IMG/VR virus record: IMGVR_UViG_3300017971_000342
Span: 1-53,873 of that record
DNA length: 53,873 nucleotides
Source of the DNA: a virus
Lineage: Duplodnaviria > Caudoviricetes
Reading direction: 5' to 3' (one strand)
The notes beneath the pieces were generated by a model, which was not told where the DNA came from, ran no database searches, and saw nothing but the letters and a program-made list of their open reading frames with translations. Of the stretch, positions 19,075 through 53,873 are shown piece by piece. Every line of letters starts with the position of its first letter. The stretch's first letter is position 1. The position numbers and the translations under genes were made by a program.

Positions 19075-19349
19075 CGACTCTACCTTCGCAAGGTAGAGTC
19101 AAGGTAGAGTCGCACGTAAATCCTTTATCGACAAGGTCAGACTCTACGTACTCTACCTACTCTACCTTGAAAGAGAGAATAAGGTATCGAGCTCCCATTC
19201 CAGAGTCTCTGGGCTGTGGCCTGTGCAACTGGGAACAAGGTAGAGTCAGTAGAGTCGGTAGAGTCTGCTCACTCCACCACTAGAGTTACGTGCGACTCTA
19301 CCTTCAGCCAAGGTAGAGTCGACTCCGCAACGTAGAGTTGCATTCCGAC
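19075..19349. repeat. ACTCTAC iteron element, copy 1 (candidate origin or packaging locus)
   Basis: 12 ACTCTAC/GTAGAGT cores; opposed 9-bp-period triplets at 19141/19150/19159 and 19240/19249/19258; 11-12 bp inverted repeats at each end. Confidence 0.92.
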
Positions 19350-19460
19350 TGTCTGTAGGGAATACATCTATCTGTAGGGAATATAAGGAAGTGGATGATT
19401 ATACTAGATGTAACGTCTATAACGATTATCAATTGTAACGATTATAACGTCTACACTGAT
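19350..19460. repeat. AT-rich tract with short direct repeats
   Basis: TCTGTAGGGAATA x2, TAACGTCTA x2, TAACGATTAT x2; strongly AT-rich relative to the rest of the window. Confidence 0.75.
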
Positions 19461-19463
19461 GGC

Positions 19464-19498
19464 AAAGATAAAAGCCCTGCGGGCTCGGACCGCAGGGC
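19464..19498 (-). terminator. Intrinsic terminator ending the early/middle region
   Basis: GCCCTGCGG-7 nt-CCGCAGGGC then TTTTATCTTT on the minus strand. Confidence 0.8.
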
Positions 19499-19555
19499 CT
19501 GGTTGTGTCACTGAACCACCAGCTGACAGCGACACGTTGCGAAGCTCCTTATTGT

Positions 19556-20227
19556 CTAGGTCTTGGCCACACGGACCGCGATCTTGGTGTCGTCGTCAGT
19601 GGCAGAGGAGAGCGCGGCCTTCAACGCCGTGGCTATCGCGTCGTCTTTCTTGGCGCCGTCAGCCTCCACTGTCTGGTGTGCCGTCATGAACGTCTGGACT
19701 CCCTTCACCACCTGTATGAACTGCCGATCCTTCTCGGTGACCTTGCCCTTCACCGCAGCGACGGCCTCTTCCATCTGTGACCCAGAGACATCTCCTGGCT
19801 TGGACATGAAGAGCTTGCCGATCACTGTGCCGGCTCCGCCCATCCCGAAGGCAGCGCCCAGGGTGGTCAATAGGCCTCCAGGAGCGAAGAGGGCTTTACC
19901 TCGGGACTCTCCCACGTCGACATCCGCAGATATCGTATCCGTCAGGAGGGCCCACTCGAGATTCTCGTCGTCTACCATCTGTTGCAGCTCATGCATGTTC
20001 TTCCTGTGTGCTTTCGGTAGGGCTTCTTTGAGCTGCTTGGCCTTGTAGAGGGATTCATAGCCGTCGAGCGAACCTGGCTCGACGACACCTGCTTTCTCCA
20101 CGTAGGCGATGCCCTGCTTGTTGACCGTCGTCGGCGTCACATACTCGTACAGCGCGGCACACCCAACGGAGGCAATGCCCAACGCCACACAGAGCAGAAA
20201 CACCATCGTCACGATGACTTTTCGCAT
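19556..20227 (-). CDS. Predicted lipoprotein with an internal hydrophobic segment
   Basis: MRKVIVTMVFLLCVALGIASVG-C lipobox-like signal; AGGAG RBS. Confidence 0.6.
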   Translation of the reverse strand: MRKVIVTMVFLLCVALGIASVGCAALYEYVTPTTVNKQGIAYVEKAGVVEPGSLDGYESLYKAKQLKEALPKAHRKNMHELQQMVDDENLEWALLTDTISADVDVGESRGKALFAPGGLLTTLGAAFGMGGAGTVIGKLFMSKPGDVSGSQMEEAVAAVKGKVTEKDRQFIQVVKGVQTFMTAHQTVEADGAKKDDAIATALKAALSSATDDDTKIAVRVAKT

Positions 20228-20238
20228 GTCGGCTCCTT

Positions 20239-20523
20239 TCAAACGTCGTTACGTTTCTGTCTCCAATAGTGTAGACACCGGACCACTTCCCGGCGATCTA
20301 CCTCAACTGCACCGAGGGCGATAGCCTGCCGGCGCTTGCTCTCTGTAAGGTCGTAGTGCGGGAGTCCAGTCGGCTTCCACTGAAACCAGGACCGTCGCAG
20401 CCGGAGCCGCAACGCGAAGCTGTGTAGGTCGTCCAGGTCGCCGTCCGTGAGCATGTGGCATGCCTTTGACCACCGCCACACCCCGGTCGGAATGCACGGC
20501 ACCAACGCATCAACGTAGATCAT
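20239..20523 (-). CDS. DUF4031 family protein
   Basis: MIYVD...CHM..D...DLH.FA..L.LRRSWFQ...PHYDLT..KR..A...GA. Confidence 0.85.
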   Translation of the reverse strand: MIYVDALVPCIPTGVWRWSKACHMLTDGDLDDLHSFALRLRLRRSWFQWKPTGLPHYDLTESKRRQAIALGAVEVDRREVVRCLHYWRQKRNDV

Positions 20524-22039
20524 AGCGTTCCCGATCCTCATACATCTGCCGGATGTAGTCGTAGCTGAGGGCACCGCCACACTTCTTGTGCCACAGACAT
20601 GCGGCCTTGGCGACGCGTTCCCGTTCGACAGGTGACTTTGTGAACCACCAGATGGCAGCCTCCAGTATGCCGTGCTCCTTGTAGTTCCAGACCGATCGCC
20701 ACCTCATCTTACCAAAGCCGACCCACTTGTCTTTGAACTGATGCTCCCCGCAGCGCCGGCAGAACCGTTCGTGGCCGCAGGTGTAGATCCATCGGTGTAG
20801 GTGCATGGTCAGCTCCTATGTAGGAGGTTCGCAGAGACGCCGGCAGGGATGTCCACCTTCCGCTGCCGAACCGATACCTCGCCCCATAGAACGCGGACGA
20901 TTGGAGCGATGATGTAGACGTCTCCCGGCTCTGACAGTAGCTCCTGACGCACATGCTGCTCGGCCTCCTCCTGGCTGTCAAAGAGCCGAACGAACTCGAT
21001 GGCCAACTCACCGATCATCGAGTTGCGGAGCAGTGCTACCTGTCCGTCTTTTGGTTTCCTTGGTACCCTCATCTCTTCGGCTCCCACAAATCGTCACGGC
21101 CATGGGTGCAGTCAGAGCAGGGATACATGTCAGCGGCCTCTCGGCTATGCTTACAGCTGACGCACGACTGCCTCTCCCAGCCCTCTTCGAAGGCAATGCC
21201 GCCTTCGTCGGCGTGTACAACGGTAGCACGCAGAGCCGCGCGGCCTGGTGCTGTTATCTGGATTTGATCGCCCTTCTGGAACTCTGACATCTCTCATGCC
21301 TCCTCAGTAGTTTACGGGCAGCGGCGATCTCCTTCTCACACATGTCACCGCCCTCAGTAAATCGACCATCATCGTCACCCTCTACGATCTTCCGCAGCAG
21401 CGACAGCGCCTGCTCCTTGACGCGGTCACGCTGTCTTAGCACCTTGCTCATAAGATCTCTTCTCCCCATGCCCTGAACCGGCGAGCAACCCACTTCTCTA
21501 CCATGCCGACGGCGTGACAGAGTCGACACTCGTCGTCGTCGTCACCTTCGACGCCCTCTCCCTTGCAGCAGGGACAAACCACACCGCTGAGGAGTAGCAT
21601 GGTCGTGTCATACTTCCGCCGATCCACAGGTCTGTATGTGTCACCCTTGCCATTCATCTCTTGTCCTCCTCGCTGCCGCCATTTTCAACCGGATCGCCAT
21701 CCGCCGCAACATGAACACCGCCCTCAGCTTCTGGACCGGCGTCATCTGGCGGTGGATCGCCAGCTGCCTGGGCCGACGCCTTCTCCCGGAGGCCTACCCA
21801 CGAAGCTGCCTCAGCGTACCAGTCTCTCCACAACGGGAGCAGTAGTAAATCGCCCTGATAAAGTCAGGGTCATCGATGTGCGTGCCCAACGGGCCATGCC
21901 CGAAGAGCCAGCAGACGAAGCTCGGCCACAGCCTGGGTTTCCATACATCGCCGAGACCCATACCACAGAAGGAGCATCGGCGCCAGAACCTGACGCTGAC
22001 GCGGTATCGACAGTTGTTGCATGATTTACTCGTAGTCAC
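20510..22039 (-). other. Run of small coupled hypothetical genes (20510..20806, 20809..21072, 21069..21290, 21254..21451, 21448..21657, 21794..22039), several Cys-rich
   Basis: Contiguous minus-strand ORFs with short overlaps and purine-rich RBSs; 21448..21657 has CxxCxGxG-like motifs. Confidence 0.6.
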
Positions 22040-23530: not shown

Positions 23531-23541
23531 GGTAACCTCCA

Positions 23542-23597
23542 AGGTAGGGCACCATTGCCCTACCTAAACAATACGCTACAACCGGGAAGAAGCCAAA
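23542..23597 (-). promoter_or_regulatory. Early-type promoter plus leader hairpin (variant)
   Basis: TTGGCT-17-TATTGT then AGGTAGGGCA-ATGG-TGCCCTACCT and GGAGG RBS. Confidence 0.65.
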
Positions 23598-24173
23598 TCA
23601 GCAGGCCTCGTTCTTGATGATTTTCTTCATGTCTTTGAGCTCAGCCCTCAGCTCCTTCAACCCGAAGGGCTTCTGGGAGGGAGTCTCGCGGACGTCTTTG
23701 ACCACCAGCTCAAGGTCGTCGGCCGAGATGCCAAGCGCCTTCAGCCGAGTCACGATGTTCTCGCGGATGCGGTCGTATCGCTCACCGGGATACCGGTCGG
23801 GCGACAGGTCGCGGATCGTACCATCCCACGAGTAGAGCTCGTAGAAGAGGACGCCGTCAGCCAGGCCATACCGGCGGACCAAGCGAGCCAGAGCCAGCAT
23901 ACGATCGCCGACACAGTCCAGCAGGTCCATGCTGTTGAGGTCGTAGTTGCACTTCGTCACGTGGAAGTTGCGGCCAACGCCGTCCGGGTCAACGATAACA
24001 TCAGCATCGCACCAGACTTCCCAGTGATTCAGCGGCCTGGCGTTTTCCCACTTGCCGTCACTGATCTGGCCGGTCAGCTCCTCTTCCCACAGGGCAGCCT
24101 GAACGTCGTTTCTGAAAGCGAGTGTCTTAGTCATGGTTTCACCCTTTCGATTGGTTTCTTTTGTCGTCTTCAT
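23598..24173 (-). CDS. Hypothetical protein (start 24173 or 24134)
   Basis: ELTGQISDGKWENARP motif; own promoter. Confidence 0.7.
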   Translation of the reverse strand: MKTTKETNRKGETMTKTLAFRNDVQAALWEEELTGQISDGKWENARPLNHWEVWCDADVIVDPDGVGRNFHVTKCNYDLNSMDLLDCVGDRMLALARLVRRYGLADGVLFYELYSWDGTIRDLSPDRYPGERYDRIRENIVTRLKALGISADDLELVVKDVRETPSQKPFGLKELRAELKDMKKIIKNEAC

Positions 24174-24208
24174 ACCTAAAGTATAACCAATCGATGTGGA
24201 AACCAAAA
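24174..24208 (-). promoter_or_regulatory. Early-type promoter
   Basis: TTTTGG-17-TATACT-TTAGGT-ATG. Confidence 0.7.
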
Positions 24209-24210
24209 CG

Positions 24211-27320: not shown

Positions 27321-28121
27321 TTATACCGGCGTGTCGGCATTCGCATCACAGGCTCCTCTTCCGGCTTCTTGCTCCGTGTCAGAAGCGCCTTGCCTGCCAT
27401 AATCAAATCGCTCAGTTTCATCGTGTGCCTCCTTTAGAACAGATCTCAGTTTGTCCACCGCATCGCCGTGAATCTGCTGAACCCGACCCTTCGTCAGGCC
27501 GACGATCATGTGAATCTCGTGCATGGTTCTTGGTCCTCCCTCAACCCCGATGCCGTAGGAGAACCGGATAACAGCCATCTCAACTTCAGTGAGCTCGGCT
27601 CGGTTGGTGTCGAGGGCGTCGACAAGATCAACCACTTCGTCGTAGTCATACGACTCGGCCGACTCGGTTTCCTGGATGTAGTCTTCTTCGTCATCAACCC
27701 TACCTACTGTGTGCCGGCGCTGCTTCGCTATGAACCGGCAGAATATGTTGATCAGGGACCGGCACAGATACGTCGAGAATTTGAACCCACGTTCCGGGTC
27801 AAACTTATCGATGCACCGGAGTAGGCCAACGAGCCCTTCAGAAACCAGCTGCTCCTGCGTTATACCACCAGCCACATACTTCTGTGCAATGTGGACAACG
27901 CATGGAAGGTTGGCCGTCACCAACTGCTCCCGCACCATAGACAATTGTTGACGTGCGATTCCCAGTTGTGAGGATTCCTGAGGCGTTCGTCTACGCCTCT
28001 GGTTCTCCAGATTGTTCACGGTGTTGCGTGCAGCCACGAGCCTACGGAACAGGCCCTGTTCAGCTGACACGGTCAGACGCTTTGTGGCGCCGGATAGAAG
28101 CAGTTGGGTGTTACTCAGCAC
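27321..28121 (-). CDS. Phage-encoded sigma-70 family factor (regions 2 and 4)
   Basis: LVTANLPCVVHIAQKY, LVSEGLVGLLRCIDKFDPERGFKFSTY, LTEVEMAVIRFSYG...RTMHEI...GLTKGRVQQI...KLR; GTG 28121 after AAGGAGG. Confidence 0.9.
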   Translation of the reverse strand: MLSNTQLLLSGATKRLTVSAEQGLFRRLVAARNTVNNLENQRRRRTPQESSQLGIARQQLSMVREQLVTANLPCVVHIAQKYVAGGITQEQLVSEGLVGLLRCIDKFDPERGFKFSTYLCRSLINIFCRFIAKQRRHTVGRVDDEEDYIQETESAESYDYDEVVDLVDALDTNRAELTEVEMAVIRFSYGIGVEGGPRTMHEIHMIVGLTKGRVQQIHGDAVDKLRSVLKEAHDETERFDYGRQGASDTEQEAGRGACDANADTPV

Positions 28122-28878
28122 TGGGAGCCTCCTTGATGCGTTGTCTTGCGAGTTTGCAGTAGGTTGGAGAGCCGTCGATCCCAACGAAGTTGCGGCCGAG
28201 GGCCTTACACACCACCCCGAGAGACGCCGATCCACAGAAGGCGTCCAGGACCGTATCACCTTCGTTGGTCCAGCCCTGTACGATCCTCTCCAGCGGAGCC
28301 GGTCCTATCTGGGCATTATGCCAGTCGACTCTGGCCTTTGCGTTGCCCTGAAGACGGGAGACCGTCCACACATGCCCAGGGACGCGACCGTTGGGGTTGG
28401 CACGAGGGTCTCCCATTTGCTGGCGGACAGACTGCTCTCGGATGTCGTCGCCGTTGAAGACGCGTGGTTCGTCGCCGATTAGCATCGGGAAGAGAAGACG
28501 GTAGTCGCCGGTCAGCCGCGTCTGGCTGTACTGGGAGAAGCGCTCGTACCAGATGATGGGTCGATCGTACATGAGTCGACCGTATTTGGTGATCAGCGGC
28601 CAGACCCACTCGCCGTGCTCTGAAGGGCACAGCCACCATACCGAACCTCCCGGCTTGACCATCTTGGACAGCTTGAACAGCGTGGACTCAACAAGATACT
28701 GGTAGTCCGCCTCAGGCAGCTTATCCTTGGTCTGGTCGTCGGCATACTTGACGCCGTAGTTGTACGGAGGATCCGCGAAGACAAGGTCGATCGGATGGTT
28801 GATGTATGGCCAGATCGGTGCGTCCTTCTCAGGTTGGAAGGCAGAACTCCAGCGGTAGTTGATGACTTTCGACTTCAT
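28111..28878 (-). CDS. Orphan N4-cytosine/N6-adenine DNA methyltransferase (beta class)
   Basis: DLVFADPPY precedes GDTVLDAFCGSAS; no adjacent restriction endonuclease. Confidence 0.9.
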   Translation of the reverse strand: MKSKVINYRWSSAFQPEKDAPIWPYINHPIDLVFADPPYNYGVKYADDQTKDKLPEADYQYLVESTLFKLSKMVKPGGSVWWLCPSEHGEWVWPLITKYGRLMYDRPIIWYERFSQYSQTRLTGDYRLLFPMLIGDEPRVFNGDDIREQSVRQQMGDPRANPNGRVPGHVWTVSRLQGNAKARVDWHNAQIGPAPLERIVQGWTNEGDTVLDAFCGSASLGVVCKALGRNFVGIDGSPTYCKLARQRIKEAPSAE

Positions 28879-29282
28879 TCCTGTGCCTCCAACAGCAGGG
28901 CCAGACCTATGTCCAGATCGTTCTTCCATCCGATGCCTGTTATGTGGCTCACGATGCCGGCAACCTGCCGAACCTCAACCCCTTTGACGAGCTCTTTGAA
29001 CTGCGGCGACTTACCAATCCAGATGGTCCGGTCTCCGTTGGTGGCGTTGACTGCACCGTGCGGTCCGTATGGGTCGGCCTTTGGATCAAGGCCCATCATG
29101 CGGTTCAGCTCTGCCTCAGAGATGATCGCTTCGCTCGGCTTGTCGGCAACAGGTCCAGTCTCCGGAGTCATATGGACGCAACCGCCATTCGGCACCAAGG
29201 CATTCACGGTGCCACAGTTGGGACAGGTCTTTGTCGTTGAATCGACGACCGACGTTTGACAATACCGGCAGATCAACATCAT
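28875..29282 (-). CDS. Zinc-ribbon hypothetical protein
   Basis: CRYC...CPNC; ATGA overlaps. Confidence 0.6.
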   Translation of the reverse strand: MMLICRYCQTSVVDSTTKTCPNCGTVNALVPNGGCVHMTPETGPVADKPSEAIISEAELNRMMGLDPKADPYGPHGAVNATNGDRTIWIGKSPQFKELVKGVEVRQVAGIVSHITGIGWKNDLDIGLALLLEAQE

Positions 29283-29971
29283 TCCTCCTTCCCGTTCGGC
29301 CGCGCGGCAGCGAGCCGTACCAATTGCTCCTCCGTGAAGTCAATCACCTTGAATGGGGAGAACGGAACACCCTCTTTGCGGAGCTCGTCCATCAGGATCT
29401 TCCGTGCCGCCTGCCCCATCATGCAGCCTACGAACTCTATGAAGTGCCGAGCCCATCGTCGGTCGTGACCATGACCGTGCGGGAGTACCGCGTGGGCCAG
29501 CTCATGGAGTACGACGATCTCGCCACCCTTACCACCCTTTTGCCCCATGCCCCAGGAGGAGAGCGTGATGCGTCCGGTGGCGACTTCGTTGCGTCCCTCA
29601 GCGTAGGTCTGCGGCCCACCGCGAGAAACTCGAGTCCCCGGTTGGTACCGAACCACACAGTTCCGGAACAGAGGGAACCGGCGCTGGAACCAGGGCTTCT
29701 CTAGGAAGGTTCGCACATACTTGGCGACCTCTGTGATGTTGCCGAAGGTTCGCTGCTCCACCTTATTGGCGAATCGGTCCTCCGCCCTATAGCATCGCTG
29801 TCGGTAGGAGTCTCGCTGAGGCATTTGACCCTTCCGCCACCATCGGCGGGAGTCAGGAGCAAAGTAACGTTCTCGCGGCCTCGTCACATCAGGATGGATG
29901 TTCAGGCGCTTGCCGAGTCGCGGTTCAACCCTATGACCGCGAACTCCCTCTTTATACTGTAATAGGTCCAT
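29279..29971 (-). CDS. HExxH zincin (TIGR04338/SprT-like)
   Basis: QRDSYRQRCYRAED, VVLHELAHAV...GHDRRW; own promoter. Confidence 0.8.
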   Translation of the reverse strand: MDLLQYKEGVRGHRVEPRLGKRLNIHPDVTRPRERYFAPDSRRWWRKGQMPQRDSYRQRCYRAEDRFANKVEQRTFGNITEVAKYVRTFLEKPWFQRRFPLFRNCVVRYQPGTRVSRGGPQTYAEGRNEVATGRITLSSWGMGQKGGKGGEIVVLHELAHAVLPHGHGHDRRWARHFIEFVGCMMGQAARKILMDELRKEGVPFSPFKVIDFTEEQLVRLAAARPNGKEE

Positions 29972-29984
29972 AGCTCTTCTCCTT

Positions 29985-30023
29985 TCTACCTATAGCATAA
30001 ACTATTTCAGGAGCAAAGCAAAA
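29985..30023 (-). promoter_or_regulatory. Early-type promoter
   Basis: TTTTGC-18-TATGCT-ATAGGTAG. Confidence 0.65.
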
Positions 30024-30033: not shown

Positions 30034-32394
30034 CTAGAACGGTATATTTTCATCGCCTCCTTCCGGTCCGCCTTCCTGCTCACACTCCGGCCACTCGTAC
30101 GGTCCGCCAAACTTCTTATCCCAGTGGTCCCGTGCCTCCTCAAGTGTTGGGAGTCGGTAGTAGTATGGCCGTTGGATTGTTTTGTCCTGGTAGACGACCG
30201 TCTCCCGCCCCTGCCACCGCACCGGAAACTCTCCTGGGCATGCACGAGACAGGAACTGGCCGAGTTTGGTGGCGGAGCCTCGCCTACTGGCGTTACTGAA
30301 CTGCTTGGTATAGTCCGTGTAGTCTGCGGTCAGCTCGTTGACTAGAACGTTCGGCTTCCAGCCGTCGTGCTCCAACAGCACCTTACCATCGAGGAGCTTT
30401 TGATACCACCACTCATCCGTAGTCTCGAAGCTGTGAATCTTCTGATCTCGCAGGGCCTGTGTCTGCGGGAGCTTCCGTACATCAAAACCGGACAGGTCGT
30501 AAGTCAGCAGCATATGGAGCAGCGCCTGGTATCCACCAGCATTCATAGCCTCCTTGATCTTCCGGAAGTAGACCCCGTCCTGCATATGCTTCTCACCAAC
30601 GTCGAGCACGCAGAATCGCCGTTCCTTGTAGCCTGCCGGCACAACCCAGTCCTCATTCGATGCCATGATCAGGTGAAGACAGTTCGCCGTCATCTCGGTG
30701 TCTACACCCTTCGGCTCTACCATGATGGAGTCTTCAGTGACCAGGGTCTTCAAGGTGGAGGCGTGGGTCTTGTCACCAGCGTAGAACGCTTCATCGCAGA
30801 AGAGTACGACACAGTCGCGGAGATGAGCGTTGAAGTTGCCGGTCAGGTGCTTGGCGTTGGACACCGCCAGGAAGTGACGGCCAAAGATCTTGCCGAACGT
30901 CCTTGCGAGGAAGCCCTTACCGACACCTTGATCACCACGTAGCACCAGCGCCGTGTGGCCAGGTGTAGCAGGGTGTTGTACTGCGGAGGCCATCCACCCT
31001 ACGACGTAGTCAAAGAGGGCCTCGTCGTTGCCGCAAACGTTCTCCCAAATGTGTTGAAGATAGAGTCCATGTTGGTTCCCCGGGATCGGCTCTACTGCAA
31101 ATCCCCGCCACATGTTGAAGGCGTCCGTCACCTCATGCTCAGGTGCAAACGTGACCCTCTTATACTGTCGACGGTTCTCATGTTCGAGCCACCACTTGCC
31201 CAGAGGGACGAAGCGGGGATTTCCCTGGGCATCTTGACCCTGCTGGACCCTACGATTCATGTGCATGTTGCGGAAGTCTTCGAAGGTCGATTTGCAGAGC
31301 CGGTGGCGTTCAAGGACTTCGTCCCATTCCTCAAACACCACGCGTGTCTTACCTCCGATTCGCACTACAGCGTAGGTCTCGTTCATCTCCCGCAGGAGTG
31401 GGTCTACCGCGTCCTCTCTGGCCCTTTCGATCTGCCGGATGGCATAGCTCTCGGCGTTACGGCCCATCTCTAATACGGAGGCACTTATGTTGAAGTCTGG
31501 GTCCGTTATGATACTGAAGATGGTCTCGTCGTCGACACCGCCACGAACCAACGCACAACAGACAAAGAACAATGCTTCGCTTCGTGAGGGGAACCGTTCG
31601 TGGTTGTCCGGGTCGTGGCCCTGTACGATAACCACCTTACACAGGTCGGTGACCTCCGCCGGCAAGTCGTTGACGTCATCGATTCTCTTGACGTTGCCAG
31701 AGATCTTTACCTTCTTCGTTGCACCGAAGCCAGACTGTTCCGCCTGGACGGCTGGCGCCGGAGTGAACTTGGACAGGGGATAGACCAGATCTTCCTCAAA
31801 GGAGATGAGGGTGGCGAGCTGAACTGTCCGGCCCTTCTTCCGCTTTCGAGCGTCAGGGCGATTCAGCGTCCCCGGGAGCCGCATGATGCGGTCTACGTTG
31901 TGGCAGTTGTCAGCACCGAACGCGAGCTCAAGCCCCTGGTTGTAGCGCTTCGCGTCCTCGTATAGGGCTTCCTCACCGTCTATCTTCTTCGGCTCCTCGA
32001 GCTTCCAGAAGCCCTGGTATCCGCCTCCCGAGAAGACTATCACGGTAGGCCGAGGCAAGCCGTTTGGAGGAGACTGGAGGATCCCCAGGGCCCTCGCCTG
32101 CTCCTTCTGTATATCCTCCCCGGCCCTCGGGTCTATGTCCACATGCAGCCAATCGAGGGCCTTCACATCCTCCCTCATCGGCTTCTTAGATACGTCGTAG
32201 CGAGTAGAGTTTACGGAGAAGTAGATGTTCCGTTCAGCACCGAAGGCCTGCAACCAGGCAAGCACGTCCTCCGCCTTGCGGAAGGTCTTCGTGTCGATAC
32301 TCTTCTTATCCAGGGAGATGGCGGTGAGAACCCACGGCCCTCCTGGGCACCACTTCTCCAGAAACTCCACAGACGCTTTATAGTTCGGTTGCAT
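30034..32394 (-). CDS. Primase-helicase (RepB-like primase plus SF3/DUF5906 helicase)
   Basis: LHVDID, FSGGGYQGFW, DRIMRLPGTLN; Walker A GDQGVGKG, LFCDEA, LIMASN. Confidence 0.92.
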   Translation of the reverse strand: MQPNYKASVEFLEKWCPGGPWVLTAISLDKKSIDTKTFRKAEDVLAWLQAFGAERNIYFSVNSTRYDVSKKPMREDVKALDWLHVDIDPRAGEDIQKEQARALGILQSPPNGLPRPTVIVFSGGGYQGFWKLEEPKKIDGEEALYEDAKRYNQGLELAFGADNCHNVDRIMRLPGTLNRPDARKRKKGRTVQLATLISFEEDLVYPLSKFTPAPAVQAEQSGFGATKKVKISGNVKRIDDVNDLPAEVTDLCKVVIVQGHDPDNHERFPSRSEALFFVCCALVRGGVDDETIFSIITDPDFNISASVLEMGRNAESYAIRQIERAREDAVDPLLREMNETYAVVRIGGKTRVVFEEWDEVLERHRLCKSTFEDFRNMHMNRRVQQGQDAQGNPRFVPLGKWWLEHENRRQYKRVTFAPEHEVTDAFNMWRGFAVEPIPGNQHGLYLQHIWENVCGNDEALFDYVVGWMASAVQHPATPGHTALVLRGDQGVGKGFLARTFGKIFGRHFLAVSNAKHLTGNFNAHLRDCVVLFCDEAFYAGDKTHASTLKTLVTEDSIMVEPKGVDTEMTANCLHLIMASNEDWVVPAGYKERRFCVLDVGEKHMQDGVYFRKIKEAMNAGGYQALLHMLLTYDLSGFDVRKLPQTQALRDQKIHSFETTDEWWYQKLLDGKVLLEHDGWKPNVLVNELTADYTDYTKQFSNASRRGSATKLGQFLSRACPGEFPVRWQGRETVVYQDKTIQRPYYYRLPTLEEARDHWDKKFGGPYEWPECEQEGGPEGGDENIPF

Positions 32395-32788
32395 TGAGCG
32401 CCTCAATAAGTCCGTTGGTGTCTAGTCCGTTCCTCCACCATATGGTGGCGTGGTGGTACAATTCGCTCCGGGTCGCTGTGCCCAGGTGCTCGGCCGCGAC
32501 GATCCCCTTGAAGAGGAGCCACTCGCGACCACACTGGAGCATGACCCATGTGTTGCCACCGCGCTTGCTGCGACGCTTGTGCCAAGCCCTTTGTTCTGGC
32601 GTCAAGGGATGGTCGAGAGTGACAGGCGTCTCAGGGCGCTTTGGCCAGGCACGGAGCCACTTCAGCTCCACCCAGCCCTCGATGAAGTTGACGTCGGGCG
32701 TCCCCGGTCCTACTGGATTTTCCACCGAGATGGCATCCAGGGACCGGAGAGCCCCGACGACCTTCTGTCTCATCCCTGATTCAGACAA
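32378..32788 (-). CDS. PD-(D/E)xK nuclease (VRR-NUC / resolvase-like)
   Basis: SVEN...PGTPDV...GWVELK...LTPEQRAWH. Confidence 0.82.
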   Translation of the reverse strand: MSESGMRQKVVGALRSLDAISVENPVGPGTPDVNFIEGWVELKWLRAWPKRPETPVTLDHPLTPEQRAWHKRRSKRGGNTWVMLQCGREWLLFKGIVAAEHLGTATRSELYHHATIWWRNGLDTNGLIEALNATEL

Positions 32789-39042: not shown

Positions 39043-39326
39043 CCCCACCCCAACACTTGTTCAACCACGCGGACCTTCTTGGCCTGTACGATGTCCGGCC
39101 TCTCGATAGACCTGACTCGCAGCCGGAAGGGATAGGGCTTCGCCGGTCCCGACTGACCATATCCCTCCTCATAGAAGAATCCGCCACACTGGTGAAGGTA
39201 GGCCGCGACCACATCGACCGGCAAGCCTACCACGTTCTCCTCAATGGCCTTCTTCGTAGCCTCAAGGACCGCGACCTGCATAGCCGCGAAATTCTCAGCA
39301 TCCGTTTTGTCTTTCCCGACCCTCAT
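39039..39326 (-). CDS. Hypothetical protein
   Basis: GAGGAGG RBS; coupled on both sides. Confidence 0.6.
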   Translation of the reverse strand: MRVGKDKTDAENFAAMQVAVLEATKKAIEENVVGLPVDVVAAYLHQCGGFFYEEGYGQSGPAKPYPFRLRVRSIERPDIVQAKKVRVVEQVLGWG

Positions 39327-40374: not shown

Positions 40375-41387
40375 CTATTCTCCCACTTGCGTTTTCTCTG
40401 GTTGATCCAGGCTCCAGCAGCCGCAGCCCAATCGCCGTCCTGGTCCATCTTCCCGAGTATCTCCTGGGCAGCGATGAACTTCTGCGGAGCCGTATTCTCC
40501 TTGTAGGCTGTGATGGCCTGCAACATAGGCAGAGCCACCTTCCTGATGAACGGGTCTGTCATGCCCAGGGCGGGACCGTCGCTGAGGAGCATCTGCATGT
40601 CCTGCTCAAACCGGTGGACGTCGCCGCGCGGGATGAGTGGGGTGGTCTTGACTACGCCACAGGCGTACGGACAGATGAACTGAGTGGACGGCCACGCCTT
40701 GTCCTGCATCTCGGTCATCAACTCCTGGTGGTTGTCCAGGTACAGATGCAGGTTGTTCGTCACCTGCCAGTATCGACCGACCTTGACGCCAATCTTCGCG
40801 GCCATGTACTCAAGGAGCACAGAGAAGTGGACCGCGTTGGCACCGAGGGCTCCCCAGACCGCATCGTTCGACCGGTTGGTAACCATCATGTCCAAAGCGC
40901 CGTCGTTGATCGAGAAGTAAGCCTGGGTGTTGCACGGTAGGTCTTTTGACTGGAGACCAAGGTCGTGATGGCCGTCCCACATTGCGAGAACCTGGCGCCG
41001 GCAGTCAGGGTTCTCCCTCAACGCTGCGGCGATCGTCTCGAGTTGGTCGCAGTTGAAGTGGCTCCGCCACCGATGGCCGTAGGCCCCGTTGAACGTGACG
41101 CCATCGTCGGAGAAATTCCGCATGGTCCCTACGATGGATGCAGGGAAGGCCACGTCGTTGCGGCCACACAACATCCACAGCGCCTCAAGTAGGTGGAAGA
41201 ACGGGTTGGCGTCCCGTTGCTCCCAGAACATGACGCGTTCGGTTGGCCTTGCGTAGACTATTGCCACAGGCTCCGGTGCCTTGAGGACTGGCCCATTCCG
41301 GCTCTCCCTTCGGATACCGTTGACGCTCAGAAACCTCATGACCTCAGGCAACGCCTGATGCACATTCCTGACTTGGATCACGTTCAC
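40371..41387 (-). CDS. Thymidylate synthase-fold enzyme, probable dUMP hydroxymethylase
   Basis: DANPFFHL.EALWML, GAYGHRWR, CRRQV, DLPCN, RSNDAVWGALGAN, NLHLY; Asn at the dUMP-specificity position; GTG 41387 after AGGAG. Confidence 0.88.
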   Translation of the reverse strand: MNVIQVRNVHQALPEVMRFLSVNGIRRESRNGPVLKAPEPVAIVYARPTERVMFWEQRDANPFFHLLEALWMLCGRNDVAFPASIVGTMRNFSDDGVTFNGAYGHRWRSHFNCDQLETIAAALRENPDCRRQVLAMWDGHHDLGLQSKDLPCNTQAYFSINDGALDMMVTNRSNDAVWGALGANAVHFSVLLEYMAAKIGVKVGRYWQVTNNLHLYLDNHQELMTEMQDKAWPSTQFICPYACGVVKTTPLIPRGDVHRFEQDMQMLLSDGPALGMTDPFIRKVALPMLQAITAYKENTAPQKFIAAQEILGKMDQDGDWAAAAGAWINQRKRKWENR

Positions 41388-41697
41388 GTGCCCATCTCCT
41401 AAGTGAGTTTTCGCTTTGCGATACTGCCTCAAGATGCTTCGGGTTGCAGCAGGCCCTGTTGCCACAAGTATGGTCAACCGTGAGGCCTTCCTCAATGTCG
41501 CCATTGAAGATCGCGTATGACAGCCGGTGGACCCAGTGGCTCTTACCATCATACCACATCTTGCCGTAGCCGTGACGGTCCTTGAACCGTTGCCAGACCC
41601 AGCAGTCGTCCACCTTCACCAGACCGGTCAACAGCCGCATAGCTGTCGACTTGTCAGTGATGGCCGGCAGCGCGTGCGATCTATTGATCTTTGGCAT
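41344..41697 (-). CDS. Free-standing HNH endonuclease
   Basis: CWVW...GYG...HRLSY...DHTCGNRACCNPKHLEAVSQSEN. Confidence 0.92.
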   Translation of the reverse strand: MPKINRSHALPAITDKSTAMRLLTGLVKVDDCWVWQRFKDRHGYGKMWYDGKSHWVHRLSYAIFNGDIEEGLTVDHTCGNRACCNPKHLEAVSQSENSLRRWARERDPSQECASGVA

Positions 41698-42493
41698 CTC
41701 TCAGGCTCGATTCGTAGGCTCTCTTCCACTGGATGGTGACCTCTTTGCGTTCCCCGAAGGCCCCACCAGATTTGTTCTTCTTCATCCGGAGGCGGACGTA
41801 AGGCGCGTGCAGTTCGGCGAGCTTCTCGGCCGCAGCCGCGTGAACCTCATGCGAACGGTAGTCGCTGCATCCTCCAGCCTCCTGCGTCTGCCGTTGTCCC
41901 TGGGCATACCTCACCGTGATGCAGTTGGGTAGGCCCTTGCGGAGAAGCTGGAGTAGGATGTCGAAGTCTTCCATCACCGCGACCCTGCCGTGCTCACAGC
42001 CCAGGAAGGCGTCGGTGTTGAAGGAGAGGACTCGGATCATCCGCGTGTTCTCGGTCGGGCAATCGGTCAGACGGTTTTGTCCCTCACGAGCCGAGATGCC
42101 GACAGCGCCGTAGCCATGGACCAGCAGCGACTCGACGTAGTTGATCATGTCGAGGGTTTCCTGCGGTTCCTGACTGAACAGGTGCCAGTCCTCAATCCCG
42201 TTGCGGCGGATGAGGAAGCCGAGATCGTCGTCCATCATGCAGAAGTGCTCGTCACCTTCGCTCTGTGCAACCTCACCGATCCACCGGCGGACGTTGGTGA
42301 TCCCGTCAACGGGACAGCCCAGAAGGCGGACTGAGGGAGGGCACTTCTCGGCGTAGGACTTGTACTGATCGATGGGGCAGACGACCACGACACGGTCGCG
42401 TAGCTCCGACACCCTCATCAGTTGGGCCAGCGTCCGGCCCTGCTCGGTGAAGCGATCCTGTCGGGACCGCGTTGGAATCCAGATCTTCATCAT
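41681..42493 (-). CDS. TAGT/GREB1-like DNA-base glycosyltransferase (GT-A fold)
   Basis: IWIPTRSR, CMMDDDL (DxD), MEDFD..LQLL..G, GGCSDYR. Confidence 0.8.
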   Translation of the reverse strand: MMKIWIPTRSRQDRFTEQGRTLAQLMRVSELRDRVVVVCPIDQYKSYAEKCPPSVRLLGCPVDGITNVRRWIGEVAQSEGDEHFCMMDDDLGFLIRRNGIEDWHLFSQEPQETLDMINYVESLLVHGYGAVGISAREGQNRLTDCPTENTRMIRVLSFNTDAFLGCEHGRVAVMEDFDILLQLLRKGLPNCITVRYAQGQRQTQEAGGCSDYRSHEVHAAAAEKLAELHAPYVRLRMKKNKSGGAFGERKEVTIQWKRAYESSLRDAKDQ

Positions 42494-43380
42494 TTCGGTC
42501 TCCCCTCGTAACGAACCTTCATCATTTGTCGTTTATGCTTCACCTTGACATACTTGGCGTATTCACAGAGCCAGTGCTCCACCTCACGCATCTCCCACTG
42601 CGGCCAGTCGTTCGGCCAGAGCTTGTTGTACCGGCTGAGGACCAGGAGCTTCTGCATTGCACGGATCGCTGCGGCTGCCGCCTTCTTCGGACCGTAGTTG
42701 ATAGCCGTGAGGTTCTTCGCGGTCAACCACGAGAGGCCACGGCAGCAGCCAGGTCCAGGGTTGGCCCACGTGTTAGTGTCCGGCGCGTTCTCGAGCAGAT
42801 AGGTGTGCCGCAGGTCGGACACTATTTCATAGGCCATGAACGGTCCGATGCACGGGAACCGTTTGAGTAGCTCCCACGTTTGCTCCAAGGTCAGGGGACC
42901 AGCCTGGTGGGTGGCCTTATGGGTGAGGACGTTGGCCGCATCCCGGTTGAAGGCGTTGACCATCTCGATACAGCCATCCAGTTTGTCCATGCCGTCCGGT
43001 GTTTTCACAACGTAGGCTGCCCCAACAACCGGCCTCACGCCTATCATAGCGAGTTTGGCTGTGGTAGCATCCCAACGCTCGAAGAGTCCGGCCTTCTTCA
43101 GTTTCTCAAGGGTCTCGATCCGGTTGAAGATGCGGCAGGCAGCCATGGCCGTTATCACCTTTGGGTTGTTGCGTAGTGGCTCCCGCACATTCTCGCGAAT
43201 CCAGACGGTGACCTTGTCGTCTTCACGGAATACGTTGCAGAACCGCCAGTCCTTGAACACTCTGTCGTCAGTCCAGGGTTTACTACGACCGGCTCTTCGT
43301 CGGCGGAGGATGTAGTATCGCTCCCTCGCCGTGGCGAAGTATTCCTCGATCTGATCGTCGTGTAGTTCGTACTCAAGCAT
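42490..43380 (-). CDS. aGPT-Pplase1 / 5-hmdU DNA kinase helical-domain family protein
   Basis: ER..I..RR..G...PWTDD.VF..WRFCNVFREDD, RIFNRIET, GPFMAYEIVSDL, GPG...GL, EVEHWLCEY.KY. Confidence 0.85.
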   Translation of the reverse strand: MLEYELHDDQIEEYFATARERYYILRRRRAGRSKPWTDDRVFKDWRFCNVFREDDKVTVWIRENVREPLRNNPKVITAMAACRIFNRIETLEKLKKAGLFERWDATTAKLAMIGVRPVVGAAYVVKTPDGMDKLDGCIEMVNAFNRDAANVLTHKATHQAGPLTLEQTWELLKRFPCIGPFMAYEIVSDLRHTYLLENAPDTNTWANPGPGCCRGLSWLTAKNLTAINYGPKKAAAAAIRAMQKLLVLSRYNKLWPNDWPQWEMREVEHWLCEYAKYVKVKHKRQMMKVRYEGRPK

Positions 43381-48068: not shown

Positions 48069-48072
48069 CTCG

Positions 48073-50514: not shown

Positions 50515-51032
50515 GGTCGCACCTTGTTGACGAGCCAGCCGAGGAAGACGTCCGTGCTGTACCCAGCGTCCATGAAGGCTCCCTGAATCGCCTCCTCCGG
50601 CGTGTCCTCTGGGCAATAGACTGCCAGGACGCGTTCGCCGTCACGGTCAAAGTCCTCAACCGAAAGGACTCCGATGTCGTGGCGCCGGCAGAACCACCAC
50701 AGGTCGATCTGATCTCGCCCAGGGCGTCCACCATCTGACTCCTTGATAAGGCCCAGGGTGACGGTGCGGTGTGACCGGACTCCCTCAAGGGTCCGCTTGA
50801 GAGTTCGGCCGATTTGCTCGTCTGTCATCGTGAGGTAGTGGGCCATGATGAAGGCGTCCTCCTCAGATGTGTAGAGTTCGCCACGTCGGTCGGCCCCACG
50901 GCGCGTGGCTTCGTTGCGTGCAGTTTCGCGGTCGGCGAGGCACCGATGGCAGACACGACCCCGGTTGGGGAAATCTCCAAAGGGCTTCTCTTTGTTGCAC
51001 TGACTGCACGTCATGATGGCTACTGTCCCCAT
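50511..51032 (-). CDS. Zinc finger plus Myb/HTH-like protein
   Basis: CSQC...CHRC; YTSEEDAFI...MTDEQIG..LKRT..GV; ATG 51032 after AGGAG. Confidence 0.65.
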   Translation of the reverse strand: MGTVAIMTCSQCNKEKPFGDFPNRGRVCHRCLADRETARNEATRRGADRRGELYTSEEDAFIMAHYLTMTDEQIGRTLKRTLEGVRSHRTVTLGLIKESDGGRPGRDQIDLWWFCRRHDIGVLSVEDFDRDGERVLAVYCPEDTPEEAIQGAFMDAGYSTDVFLGWLVNKVRP

Positions 51033-51140
51033 GTTCTCTCCTAGCAAAGTGCCGCGAAGCAGAGAATCGGCAGCACAACCCAGTGCCAGGCCCATTCTCG
51101 CCACTTGCGACGACGGTTGATTTTGCAGAACGCACACATC

Positions 51141-51284
51141 TTACTTCTGCCCCAGGACGCTGACGGCCTCATTCCAGCGAGCCTCGGTTTCACGGCTCTG
51201 AGCACCAGCCCACTTACCAAGGGCGACACCGCTCCAGATCAGGGCGACCAGCGTTATCGTGATGACGGTCAGTTTCGTTTTCAT
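51141..51284 (-). CDS. 47-aa membrane-anchored peptide (not in the track)
   Basis: MKTKLTVITITLVALIWSGVALGKWAG...; first ORF after promoter copy B, GGAG RBS. Confidence 0.55.
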   Translation of the reverse strand: MKTKLTVITITLVALIWSGVALGKWAGAQSRETEARWNEAVSVLGQK

Positions 51285-51290
51285 CGTAGT

Positions 51291-51348
51291 TCTCCATTGA
51301 GCACCATTGCTCTACGTAAAGCATACGTTACATCTGGAGGAAGCCAAA
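51291..51348 (-). promoter_or_regulatory. Early-type promoter plus leader hairpin (copy B)
   Basis: TTTGG-18-TATGCT-TTACGTA-GAGCA-ATGG-TGCTC-AATGGAG. Confidence 0.75.
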
Positions 51349-51812
51349 TCAAATCTCCGGTTTTCCCGGCCCTTTCTGCTGTGCCTCGAGCAAGAGCTCC
51401 AGGCCGATGTTCTGCTGGTACATGTGGCCTCGGCCCTGCACCTTAGACGGCGCTGCTCCGTGAGCCTTCACCGTTCGCTTACACTTCGGGCACCGTACGA
51501 TGTTGGCGTGGACGAGGGTTGTCTCGAAGAAGTCCTGGCACGTTTGGCACCACCATCGGGTTGTTCCTGGCCGTAGCATTATTTCCACACTCCTGTCTCT
51601 ACGATGTCGGCTCCAGCTGTGCCACCGTCCTTTGGCCGATACTTAGGACAATGGTATCCCTCTGTGTAGGCAATGTCCTCCTTAGTGACTCCCTTGCCCC
51701 TGATAGAACCAAACGGGCAGGAGCTACAGGAACACTCATCCCGTTTGTTGCAGTACTGACTGACCACGTCGGTCAGCCGGTATTTCTTGCGTTGTCCTCC
51801 AAGATTGAACAT
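51349..51812 (-). other. Two small Cys-rich genes (51349..51588, 51579..51812)
   Basis: CxxC pairs; GGAG RBSs. Confidence 0.55.
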
Positions 51813-51821
51813 AGCCAGCTC

Positions 51822-51853
51822 CAAAGAGGGCGGTGAGCCGAAGCCCACCGCCC
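51822..51853 (-). terminator. cUUCGg tetraloop terminator after DUF932
   Basis: GGGCGGTGGGC-TTCG-GCTCACCGCCC then TCTTT. Confidence 0.75.
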
Positions 51854-51865
51854 CGTGAAAGGGTC

Positions 51866-52909
51866 TTAGCTTGCCAGCACGAGGGCCTTCTTGAAGGCCA
51901 CGAGCTTCTGCTGGTTCGAGGTTCCGAAGAGGTTGCTGTGGGCACGACCCTGGCTCTCGGCCACCGGCAGGAACCGACCGCGCTGGTGGTCGTGGTATTC
52001 CGAGACCGCGTTGTAGGCAGCCCACGCTGTGCCGGCGATACCGGTGATCGTCTGGCGTTCGTTGTTGAAGTTGTTCTCCCAGCCGGCAATGATCTCGTCA
52101 CGCTTGGCGATCTGCCGCATGAACCGCTGGCTTGCCTTGGTGTCGTCATCATCCGGAGCCGTATCCGGCACCACGCCGAAGGTCGCGTCGTAGCAGGCAC
52201 GGAAGTAGCCGGTGACCTCGTCCTTGTTCAGGTGCTTTGCAGCGAGGACTCTCACCTGGGCCTCGAACCGGGCACTTTCCTGGGTGATGAGGCCCAGGGC
52301 GAGGCGAGCGTGGTCGATCTTGGTGGTGATGTCGCCGGTGTGCTGGAACTGGATGCCGCGAGCGATGTCCCGCTCGGACATACGGAGCGTGTTGGCGCAG
52401 ACGACCCGGACCGAAGTCGGGTAGATCTGGAAGGCGCTGCTGCCGTCGTGGCTGTTGCGGATGAGGATATACTGCTCGAGGACGTCACCGTCCACCACTT
52501 CGATGTCCTTCGGGAGCTTGACCAGCCCAAAGACGCAGCGACCGTTGCGGAGGGAGCCAGCCGTCTCGACCGACACCTTCTTGTCCACCTCAACCAAGGC
52601 GTCGGCGAACTCCGCCAGCGTCCGGTTGCTGATCGGCTTGTAGCCGGAGCCCACAACGCCGAGCTCTTGGAGCGTGTCCTTCCGGACGTGGACGCAGTGG
52701 CTCTTGACGCGGAACTGCTTCTGCTTCCCGTCGACCTTATGGGTGGCGAACAACGGAAGGAGCTCCGTTTCCCAGCCGAGGCCGATTTGCTCGAAGGCTT
52801 CCCAGGTTCCAAGACCGTCCGGGATTTCCACTCCGAGGCCGTGCCAGGCTCTCTGGCCATGCTCACGGACCTCACCAAAGACGTCTTGTGCTTCGATTTC
52901 GTGTGCCAT
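51866..52909 (-). CDS. DUF932 (LGT_TIGR03299) family protein
   Basis: AWHGLG, ETAGSLRNG, NSHDGS, RVVCANTL, GTAWAAYNAVSEY.DH. Confidence 0.93.
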   Translation of the reverse strand: MAHEIEAQDVFGEVREHGQRAWHGLGVEIPDGLGTWEAFEQIGLGWETELLPLFATHKVDGKQKQFRVKSHCVHVRKDTLQELGVVGSGYKPISNRTLAEFADALVEVDKKVSVETAGSLRNGRCVFGLVKLPKDIEVVDGDVLEQYILIRNSHDGSSAFQIYPTSVRVVCANTLRMSERDIARGIQFQHTGDITTKIDHARLALGLITQESARFEAQVRVLAAKHLNKDEVTGYFRACYDATFGVVPDTAPDDDDTKASQRFMRQIAKRDEIIAGWENNFNNERQTITGIAGTAWAAYNAVSEYHDHQRGRFLPVAESQGRAHSNLFGTSNQQKLVAFKKALVLAS

Positions 52910-52925
52910 GATTTCTCCCTTTCAC

Positions 52926-53198
52926 TTAGCTGTTGTCAGCGATTTGTTCGATCACGCGACCCAGGTCGCAGATTTCACTGTTCGTTACGTTGGCGACACC
53001 CTTGCCGCCTCTACCTTTACGCTCACCGACAACCTTCACCAGGATGGCGTTGGCGACCACCCAGGCCTGGTCATCGTCGCCAGCCGCAGCGTCTACGATG
53101 AAATGGCCGTTGATCCAGACGCGAACCACGCCGCGACCCTTATTCTCCAGCTCAACCTCCGAAACGCTGATTTTCAAGGTGGCTTTTACGAGCTTCAT
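52926..53198 (-). CDS. Hypothetical protein
   Basis: First gene after promoter copy C. Confidence 0.65.
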   Translation of the reverse strand: MKLVKATLKISVSEVELENKGRGVVRVWINGHFIVDAAAGDDDQAWVVANAILVKVVGERKGRGGKGVANVTNSEICDLGRVIEQIADNS

Positions 53199-53212
53199 GA
53201 CTTTGCCTTTCG

Positions 53213-53264
53213 TTGAGCACTATTGCTCTACTAAAAGTATAAACTACATCTGGCAGAAGCAAAA
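53213..53264 (-). promoter_or_regulatory. Early-type promoter plus leader hairpin (copy C)
   Basis: TTTTGC-17-TATACT-TTTAGTA-GAGCA-ATAG-TGCTC-AA. Confidence 0.75.
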
Positions 53265-53281
53265 CGAGATGGTCAAAATTC

Positions 53282-53548
53282 CTACAGAAGAGGATGATTT
53301 TCCCACTCGGCGTTTGCCATGGTGTAGAGCTGATCAGCGAACTCATCCGCAAACCGGCAGGCGTTGGGAAGGCCCTCTCGTTCCAAGTCAGGGCAGATAT
53401 CCTCAAGCGCCGTGGCCAGATTCTCGAGCAGCCCACGGTCGGCATTGGTCATAGCCAGAGTCAGGAGCTTGGCAAAACCGCGAGGAGTCATGACGCTGCC
53501 GCGAGGAAGGTCGATTCCGAGATTGACGGTTTTGGTTTCAGTTGCCAT
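53282..53548 (-). CDS. Hypothetical protein
   Basis: ATG 53548 after AAGGA; follows promoter copy D. Confidence 0.65.
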   Translation of the reverse strand: MATETKTVNLGIDLPRGSVMTPRGFAKLLTLAMTNADRGLLENLATALEDICPDLEREGLPNACRFADEFADQLYTMANAEWENHPLL

Positions 53549-53562
53549 GGTTATCCTTTCAG

Positions 53563-53614
53563 CTAGAGTTCTCTTCTCTACGTAAAGTATAACCAACAGA
53601 TGCTGAAAGCAAAA
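53563..53614 (-). promoter_or_regulatory. Early-type promoter (copy D)
   Basis: TTTTGC-17-TATACT-TTACGTAGAG. Confidence 0.72.
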
Positions 53615-53632
53615 CAGTTTCTTGAAATTCTA

Positions 53633-53873
53633 CGACTCTACCTTCGCAAGGTAGAGTCAAGGTAGAGTCGCACGTAAGTCTAGTGCTGGAGTGAGCAGAC
53701 TCTACGTACTCTACCTACTCTACCTTGAAAGAGAGAATAAGGTATCGAATCGCCGCTGGAGAGTCGACTTCTCTGGGCCTGTGGAAGTTGAGACAAGGTA
53801 GAGTCAGTAGAGTCCGCGAAGTCGACTGGGCCACTCACCGCGATAAGGAGAATCCAGAACTCTGTATTCCGAC
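53633..53873. repeat. ACTCTAC iteron element, copy 2 (direct orientation, truncated or degenerate right arm)
   Basis: Three blocks identical to 19075-19256 at a constant offset of 34558; 8 cores; ends in ATTCCGAC like copy 1. Confidence 0.92.

Follow-up and report, generated by a model that had tools for sequence, protein, structure and literature searches.

Satellite phage P4 carries two cis-acting regions, ori and crr, which share the same short repeat and are bound by the C-terminal winged-helix domain of the alpha primase-helicase; the two are ~4.5 kb apart, and neither is a palindromic copy of the other. Published accounts, among them PMC6092414, describe the origins of Staphylococcus aureus pathogenicity islands (SaPIs) and phage-inducible chromosomal islands (PICIs) as ~300-bp stretches in which 6–12 penta- to heptanucleotide iterons are oppositely disposed around an AT-rich region and are bound by the C-terminal winged helix of self-loading superfamily 3 (SF3) or MCM-type helicases, presumably with one hexamer on either side. 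SaPI5 has three 7-nt iterons in tandem (L2–L4), spaced by AA, and inverted iterons close by. According to PMC6316719, Bacillus phage SPP1 has two distant, similar repeat-plus-AT-rich elements, oriL and oriR, in its early and late regions, which share one origin-binding protein, and the second element has been proposed to stall forks and trigger concatemer synthesis. Here, we describe a pair of palindromic iteron elements in the IMG/VR virus record IMGVR_UViG_3300017971_000342 (the window, i.e. the whole stretch of 53,873 bp that was analysed), with copy 1 upstream of the small terminase gene terS and copy 2 upstream of the early/replication block. The pair is real, conserved and geometrically constrained, and we propose, with a probability of ~0.45, that the two elements are copies of one putative initiator-binding, origin-of-replication-type DNA element.

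An ungapped comparison of positions 19060–19330 with 53618–53873 returned three identical runs of 45 nt (19075–19119 = 53633–53677), 53 nt (19138–19190 = 53696–53748) and 22 nt (19235–19256 = 53793–53814), separated in both copies by spacers of exactly 18 nt (5/18 positions identical) and 44 nt (21/44 identical). This is precisely the arrangement that an initial annotation had read from the letters alone, and its further claim that copy 2 has, as its 18-nt spacer, the right-arm spacer of copy 1 in reverse complement also held, with 2 mismatches; the arms at 19236–19304 (copy 1) and 53659–53727 (copy 2) are 91 % complementary over 69 nt. The limits it gave for copy 1 (19075–19256) describe the part matched in copy 2, but the element itself is longer and forms a full palindrome (Table 1). 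A full copy comprises ~12 iterons (core GTAGAGT) in a palindrome of roughly 250 bp. In copy 1, 12 iterons occupy 246 bp in the plus-strand orientations <>>, <<<, >>> and <>>, its 12 GTAGAGT cores being spread across 19077–19338. As a single strand, copy 1 folds into one long hairpin (−63.9 kcal/mol, z=−9.7 relative to 200 shuffles). The 9-mer GGTAGAGTC has 11 matches in the window, all of them inside the two elements (0.44 expected from the shuffle mean; 0/100 shuffles reach 11), and 20 of the 25 GTAGAGT matches fall within the elements (4.56 expected for the whole window). The sequence TGTAGGGA is not enriched window-wide (39 matches vs 31 expected).

Copy 2 is cut by the contig end. The right arm that it lacks is present in the early copy of a relative, the 59,230-bp contig G001 (~75 % nucleotide identity to the window, opposite orientation), and the last bases of the window (..TCCGAC, 53860–53873) match those entering the right-arm iteron of that copy, from which we infer that the assembler stopped at the repeat. 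No Rfam 15 family matched the window at the gathering score, and the element as a query against the ‘phages’ DNA collection gave no match. An informal inspection by eye spoke against the A-box hairpins being intrinsic terminators, as no T run was seen behind them, and against sigma-54 enhancer sites, as no −24/−12 match was seen upstream of terS.

Self-BLAST of seven genomes (the window, G001, Ab18, YuA, CN1, RDJL3 and Donnerlittchen) showed that in five of them the best internal repeat links two sites, one ahead of the early block and one ahead of terS (Table 1). Paired elements at the same two positions in relatives are what the initial annotation had suggested looking for. RDJL3 yielded no internal repeat at E≤1e-6, the repeats of Donnerlittchen are located elsewhere, and both phages differ in gene order. 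Judged from these comparisons, the pair is a family trait. Both G001 copies lie mid-contig, at 18652–18925 before the early block and 54047–54320 before terS; a further contig, G002, matches part of G001 at 99.995 % identity and so does not count as an independent case. A scan of IMG/VR for the exact pattern returned 55 loci, of which the 3 that belong to relatives (L005, L008 and L051, on G001 and G002) were read; the 52 others are single matches. A search for related loci based on terS yielded only four relatives. The iteron sequence varies between genera. In the cultured phages the 8-mer CTTAGGTT is confined to the pairs genome-wide (4/4 matches in Ab18, 3/3 in YuA and 7/7 in CN1), and in YuA and CN1 it is oppositely oriented on the two sides of the centre. 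In all three, G+C content within each intergenic region is lowest at the centre of the element (17–33 %, in genomes of 63–64 %). The centre includes a (GATA)n microsatellite of ~6 units in both CN1 copies (510–565 and 34960–35015) and in the terS copy of YuA (33185–33225); that of the YuA early copy is (GAA)n instead.

Measured from start to start between GTAGAGT cores in the four elements of the window and G001, the geometry is close to fixed. Opposed B (<<<) and C (>>>) triplets with a 9-bp period flank the centre in 4/4 elements, and again in two further relatives, L163 and L089; the stretch between them is ~60 bp, its conserved part being AT-rich. On each side an outer set of three iterons stands off the inner triplet. 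Distances of 37 bp from outer set to inner triplet and of 9 and 9 within the inner triplets were found in 4/4 elements, the distance across the centre is 81, 81, 81 (40+41, with an extra core) and 92 (+11), and that from the right triplet to the right outer set is 37 in both terS copies and 56 in the early copy of G001. The view that spacing is conserved while the spacers themselves diverge was thus borne out. Adjoining copy 1 is an AT-rich stretch (19340–19455) containing the lowest-GC 40-nt window of its intergenic region (28 % G+C), which may be a second kind of binding site or an unwinding region; G001 has a related stretch.

Aligning the four elements revealed that the early copies resemble each other after the C array, and the terS copies in the right spacer and A′ box. 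As these position-specific features are common to both phages, both copies are older than the split between the window and G001. The G001 copies differ from each other by several substitutions and an A-box insertion (not quantified), whereas the boxes of the window copies are identical, which suggests recent patchy conversion in the window lineage. The exchange or inversion of arms postulated earlier is supported by the inverted spacer in copy 2, by the early copy of G001, whose spacer is a hybrid of both spacer types, and by Ab18, in which the whole second copy is inverted.

The candidate for an iteron-binding initiator is a primase-helicase with an N-terminal RepB_primase domain, a DUF5906 (SF3/D5-type helicase) domain and a C-terminal domain whose model resembles a winged helix; the protein matches the helicase of NrS-1 (E value 8.6e-9). 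Of the ORF pairs shared by the window and G001, two phages with an identical iteron, it is the best conserved (88.9 %, vs 73 % for terS and 75 % for the sigma factor). Its last ~140 residues are the most divergent part relative to phages with other iterons (32–38 %), and are 84 % identical to those of G001. For residues 590–790, modelled from 57 aligned sequences (pLDDT 85.7), nearly all Foldseek matches were winged-helix domains, all of them weak (best E value 0.097), and none in the PDB reached E≤0.001. VIA-align returned RFX (Z 5.1), the equivalent C-terminal region of NrS-1 (Z 4.5), the winged helices of ORC/Cdt1 and, reminiscent of P4 though structurally a weak match, the P4 origin-binding domain 1KA8 (Z 4.2, rmsd 3.1, 71 aligned). 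The model is consistent with a winged-helix fold at the C-terminus of the primase-helicase, but does not establish it. PriRep5 was not among the structural matches listed for the C-terminal model, which proves nothing.

If the elements are of origin type, the SF3 primase-helicase would bind the iterons via its C-terminal winged-helix-like domain, and each arm would receive one hexamer that opens the DNA at that point, in the manner reported for PICI/SaPI Rep proteins. On a circular map of ~63.5 kb, the probable size of the full genome given that ~9.7 kb of distal tail genes, as read in G001, are absent from the window, the second copy is placed roughly opposite the first. It might act as a second origin or as an auxiliary initiator-bound site; the latter could serve as a barrier to forks or a theta-to-sigma switch, roles suggested for oriR of SPP1, or as a cis-enhancer of the kind seen in P4 crr. 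Since the early-block and late-block promoters each have a copy directly upstream, occupancy by the initiator may also affect transcription; origin and operator roles are not exclusive. Element orientation is irrelevant, given that the Ab18 copies are mutually inverted. A bolder version, which we regard as rather a long shot, takes the palindromes to be a functional pair for the same SF3 primase-helicase, one a firing origin and the other a near-opposite barrier or handcuffing partner, so that the pair would split the early and late halves of the genome, couple replication to the early–late and theta–concatemer switches and form an ori/ter-like organiser found throughout the Mesyanzhinovviridae and free to flip.

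The initial annotation did not recognise this architecture. In our analysis, the layout is recognisable as that of a PICI/SaPI-type origin, for which SPP1 oriL/oriR would offer the two-copy precedent. PICI/SaPI origins share with the present elements a length of ~250–300 bp, 6–12 iterons in opposed sets, an AT-rich centre and some inverted iterons per side, to which the 6+6 iterons, 9-bp triplets and inverted outer iterons seen here conform; by our arithmetic, L2–L4 of SaPI5 have the same 9-bp period as the B and C triplets. The initiator there is an SF3 primase-helicase of ~790 aa with a C-terminal winged helix; the candidate here is likewise an SF3 primase-helicase, of 790 aa, for which both the winged helix and the binding are predictions. 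The elements differ from those origins in occurring twice per genome, in a virulent-type siphophage rather than a satellite, and in having longer iterons (9–11 nt) and, in the window, a short AT-rich centre. With SPP1 they share the presence of two distant, similarly organised elements per genome (5/7 genomes examined). SPP1, in contrast, uses gp38, a DnaB-type helicase and a loader, its repeats are direct, and oriL lies inside gene 38; no PHROG or Pfam match to a gp38-type origin-binding protein, DnaB-type helicase or loader was found among the ORFs scanned here, the helicase-primase being of the SF3 type. The likeness is one of layout, and no sequence relation to the SPP1 origins is expected. 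In Donnerlittchen, a 700-bp gap (38691–39391) directly after the ‘P4-specific DNA primase’ gene contains AATCTAGGCCT palindromes and an AT-rich inverted repeat, with no clear iteron array; it is possibly a single origin in the PICI position.

Several observations weigh against an origin. The central distance is 101 in L163 (terL 59 %) and 88 in L089 (terL 72 %), two relatives with the same iteron and plan, so the spacing is tight among close relatives, with helical phase not strictly kept further out. The AT-rich centre is only ~22 nt long in the window and G001 (9 G+C in 25 nt, counted by eye), and the lowest-GC stretches of their intergenic regions fall outside the element. PICI origins lie immediately 3′ of rep, whereas here the primase-helicase gene is separated from the copies by ~10.7 and 21 kb. 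Between close relatives, co-variation with the iteron would be expected of any conserved protein; the matches to winged helices are weak (E≥0.097, Z≤5.1), and Z scores under 8 may reflect only a common arrangement; and a sequence search with the primase-helicase did not find PriRep5. GC skew is inconsistent, its cumulative minimum coinciding with the early copy in the window and G001 but lying elsewhere in Ab18, YuA and CN1. The fixed location ahead of two operon starts would be just as fitting for a transcriptional role. Origins are commonly transcribed, and the promoters found in YuA and in the window are accommodated equally well by a transcription-activated origin and by a regulatory array. 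For all these phages, iteron binding and replication initiation by the primase-helicase are predictions.

The main rival to an origin, which we hold to be unlikely but well worth weighing, is that a phage-encoded regulator uses the elements as operator or enhancer arrays and co-controls the promoters of the early and late (terS) blocks, possibly by looping, as occurs between the operator copies OL and OR of lambda. In 5/5 syntenic genomes each copy directly precedes the opening gene of a block, promoter-like sites follow the A box at 19 nt (copy 2) and ~97 nt (copy 1), the phage encodes its own sigma factor, and the conserved spacing would suit cooperative binding. In YuA, two sigma-70 promoters detected by promoter trap (489–568 and 33014–33160; GenBank annotation of NC_010116) fall inside the copies, matching the pair in genome position, and the −35 boxes annotated for them (TTAGGT) share bases with the iteron CTTAGGTT; the record lists them as separate promoters with measured activity, not as a repeated element. 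Mapped YuA transcription starts (ONT-cappable-seq; PMC10914365, Table S3) include P003 (814, +) and P014 (33417, +), each between a copy and the next gene, and P002 (612, minus strand), which maps to the border of the AT-rich centre; the position of P003 is equivalent to that of the promoter motif beside copy 2. Against a regulator, none of 46 small or unassigned ORFs matched a helix-turn-helix or ribbon-helix-helix Pfam family at E≤0.01, and the ORFs beside copy 2 are poorly conserved or absent in G001 despite its identical iteron. A 246-bp palindrome of twelve iterons around an AT-rich centre goes far beyond what known operators need, the flipped copy of Ab18 changes how its asymmetric centre faces the promoter, and the distance from A box to promoter is unequal between the copies. 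Repeat clusters also flank the cleavage region in P1 pac and in pacL/pacR of SPP1, and clusters of short repeats around a central region, one of them immediately upstream of terS, could be duplicated pac sites recognised by the small terminase, which we consider very unlikely. Headful packaging from circularly permuted DNA is reported for the family in PMC11946847 and PMC8471281. Copy 2, however, is 34.6 kb from terS, unlike a single terS-linked site of pac type, and the inverted copy of Ab18 would reverse the direction of packaging. Moreover, the loci that carry the GTAGAGT array (G001, L089 and L163; terS 73, 47 and 41 %, terL 84, 72 and 59 % vs the window) overlap in their similarity to the window with those that lack it in the 1000 nt upstream of terS (L091, L142 and L144; terS 40, 45 and 45 %, terL 70, 67 and 57 %), which argues that iteron identity is independent of the packaging module; this comparison covers the three carriers and three non-carriers with full upstream sequence, three further non-carriers offering only 230–374 nt. 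The contigs on which packaging module and iteron are discordant (L089–L092, L142 and L163) are too short to include the primase gene.

Recombination between the copies, site-specific or homologous, could split the genome into circles of 34.6 and ~29 kb or let its halves reassort. The copies are in direct orientation, share identical runs as long as 53 nt and bear traces of past exchange between arms and copies, yet we rate this as highly improbable. Neither the 71 ORFs of the window nor the 8 ORFs of the missing part, as read in G001, include a recombinase, integrase or invertase family, and in the inverted arrangement of Ab18 recombination would invert the segment, not excise it. Logan contigs from two runs flagged as possible sources of the window (X1 and X2) were mapped to 51000–53873. 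None of the Logan contigs bridges a whole element (a 32,163-bp contig corresponds to ~19161–51320 and one of 8,085 bp to 11020–19104), so the assembly graph alone is compatible with one circle or two; depth is equal on both sides, with flanking contigs at 24–27.5 in X1 and 23–30 in X2, and the one-circle order is found in the window across copy 1, in G001 across both copies, in G002 across the early copy and in three cultured genomes. The same data answer the suspicion that copy 2, at the very end of a contig that stops at the repeat, is an assembly artefact, arising either from chimeric joining to a relative assembled alongside it or as a terminal repeat. Both copies are mid-contig in G001 and likewise in Ab18, YuA and CN1; a 116-bp Logan contig over 53633–53748 has a depth of 46.6 and 45.5 in the two runs, about twice that of its flanks, which fits two copies per genome; and two contigs starting at 53719 (7,806 and 9,845 bp) extend beyond 53873 by 7,651 and 9,690 nt. 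An artefact is already contradicted by these data, and we give it practically no weight. Among the functions first suggested for the pair, dual origins or paired initiation and termination fit best, while packaging and recombination fared poorly.

As first annotated, the copies bracket the early/replication block (19556–53548) and each is upstream of a promoter-like site, both promoters being consensus matches (Table 1). The motif at copy 2 is 19 nt from the element and belongs to a family of seven in the window, in which TATACT is followed by TTACGTAGAG-like bases; six are in the minus-strand sense (53576–53614, 53226–53264, 51310–51348, 29984–30022, 24173–24209 and 23558–23596), and the seventh (10990–11049), in the plus-strand sense, precedes a small plus-strand ORF cluster (10994–12190) in the structural module. 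The family resembles the ‘phage promoter’ class mapped in YuA. At the terS promoter position, G001 has TTGCCA-17-TATACT followed by AGGAGT and ATG. As the −10 box of the window ends 6 nt before the ATG (18944–18978), the terS message may be almost leaderless.

Table 1. Coordinates of the paired elements and associated features (window positions unless another genome is named)
Feature	Coordinates	Strand	Remarks
Window	1–53873		Complete IMG/VR virus record; linear; completeness estimate 85 %
Copy 1, full palindromic iteron element	19075–19320		Upstream of terS
Copy 1, A box	19075–19119		Inverted pair and one direct iteron
Copy 1, spacer	19120–19137		18 nt
Copy 1, B triplet and conserved AT-rich centre	19138–19190
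Copy 1, variable part	19191–19234		44 nt
Copy 1, C triplet	19235–19265
Copy 1, right spacer and A′ box	19266–19320
Extra iteron core	19332–19338		Beyond the copy 1 palindrome
AT-rich stretch adjoining copy 1	19340–19455		CTGTAGGGAATA twice; four TAACG units in a-b-b-a pattern
Copy 2	53633–53873		Upstream of early block; right arm lost at contig end
Copy 2, A box	53633–53677
Copy 2, spacer	53678–53695
Copy 2, B triplet and centre	53696–53748
Copy 2, 44-nt part	53749–53792
Copy 2, C array	53793–53814		Third unit degenerate
Repeat pair, window	Early 53633–53814; terS 19075–19256		Direct
Repeat pair, G001	Early 18732–18926; terS 54046–54301		Direct, plus inverted arm match
Repeat pair, Ab18	Early 84–388; terS 31598–31294		Inverted; 86 % over 310 nt
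Repeat pair, YuA	Early 595–651; terS 33133–33189		Direct
Repeat pair, CN1	Early 495–631; terS 34946–35082		Direct
Primase-helicase	30034–32406	−	790 aa; candidate iteron-binding initiator
Phage-type promoter motif	53576–53614	−	Motif match; TATACT −10-like box; between copy 2 and first early ORF
Sigma-70-like promoter site	18950–18978	−	Consensus match; TTGCCT-17-TATGAT; 6 nt before terS start codon
First early-block ORF	53282–53548	−	88 aa; no family; without ortholog in the G001 list
Intrinsic-terminator-like hairpin	19472–19500	−	Ends early/middle block; 11 pairs (8 G-C), then T run; kept in G001
terS (small terminase)	18365–18943	−	Opens late block; phrog_4044, E value 5.9e-27

The window phage is a marine YuA/Ab18-like siphophage and a distant member or relative of the Mesyanzhinovviridae, as judged from its polymerase (54 % identity to Pseudomonas phages Ab18 and PaMx11, 51 % to Bordetella phages CN1 and FP1) and terL (59 % identity to Ab18 and PaMx11), and it occurs in metagenomes from sediment and seawater. 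Almost all of its genes are on the minus strand. According to PHROG matches, the late block opens with terS, continues with terL, portal, head and tail genes and reaches a tape-measure gene cut at position 1, ~20 codons before its end as judged from G001, and the early block, read from 53548 down to 19556 on the minus strand, encodes helicases, ribonucleotide reductase, a thymidine-hypermodification set, DNA polymerase A, the primase-helicase, a sigma factor and ligase. The primase-helicase is also recorded on a contig of 65,798 bp, and an 11,107-bp Logan contig extends ~63 nt past position 1 of the window by arithmetic. The hypermodification set (40371–43380) comprises a thymidylate-synthase-like gene, whose start is overlapped by an HNH endonuclease ORF, a glucosyltransferase-like gene and a 5-hmdU DNA kinase helical domain (PF18723), and the DNA of the phage is probably hypermodified, like that of M6 and YuA. 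The sigma factor (27321–28259; Sigma70 regions 2 and 4) has no annotated gene in the YuA, Ab18 or CN1 records. For a conserved 230-aa ORF at 29279–29971, the Protein Atlas gave no useful lead.

We found no description of the pair, or of the origins of YuA, M6 or Ab18 (Mesyanzhinovviridae), in the searchable literature, a scope that leaves out the original YuA paper; the terms ‘origin of replication’, ‘iteron’ and ‘inverted repeats’ each occur 0 times in the Lydia family review. In ‘lysogens’ of Bordetella phage LK3, phage DNA forms an intact, uncut band and is also present in plasmid preparations, according to PMC8471281, which hints at episomal carriage in the family and so at a further role for an origin-type element. 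Phages of the YuA/M6/Ab18 family are used in Pseudomonas phage work, and the best internal repeat provides a simple annotation marker for their genomes. If our reading is correct, the elements would offer a concrete and testable site for initiation by phage SF3 primase-helicases and, beside SPP1, a second system in which to ask what role a duplicated origin plays.

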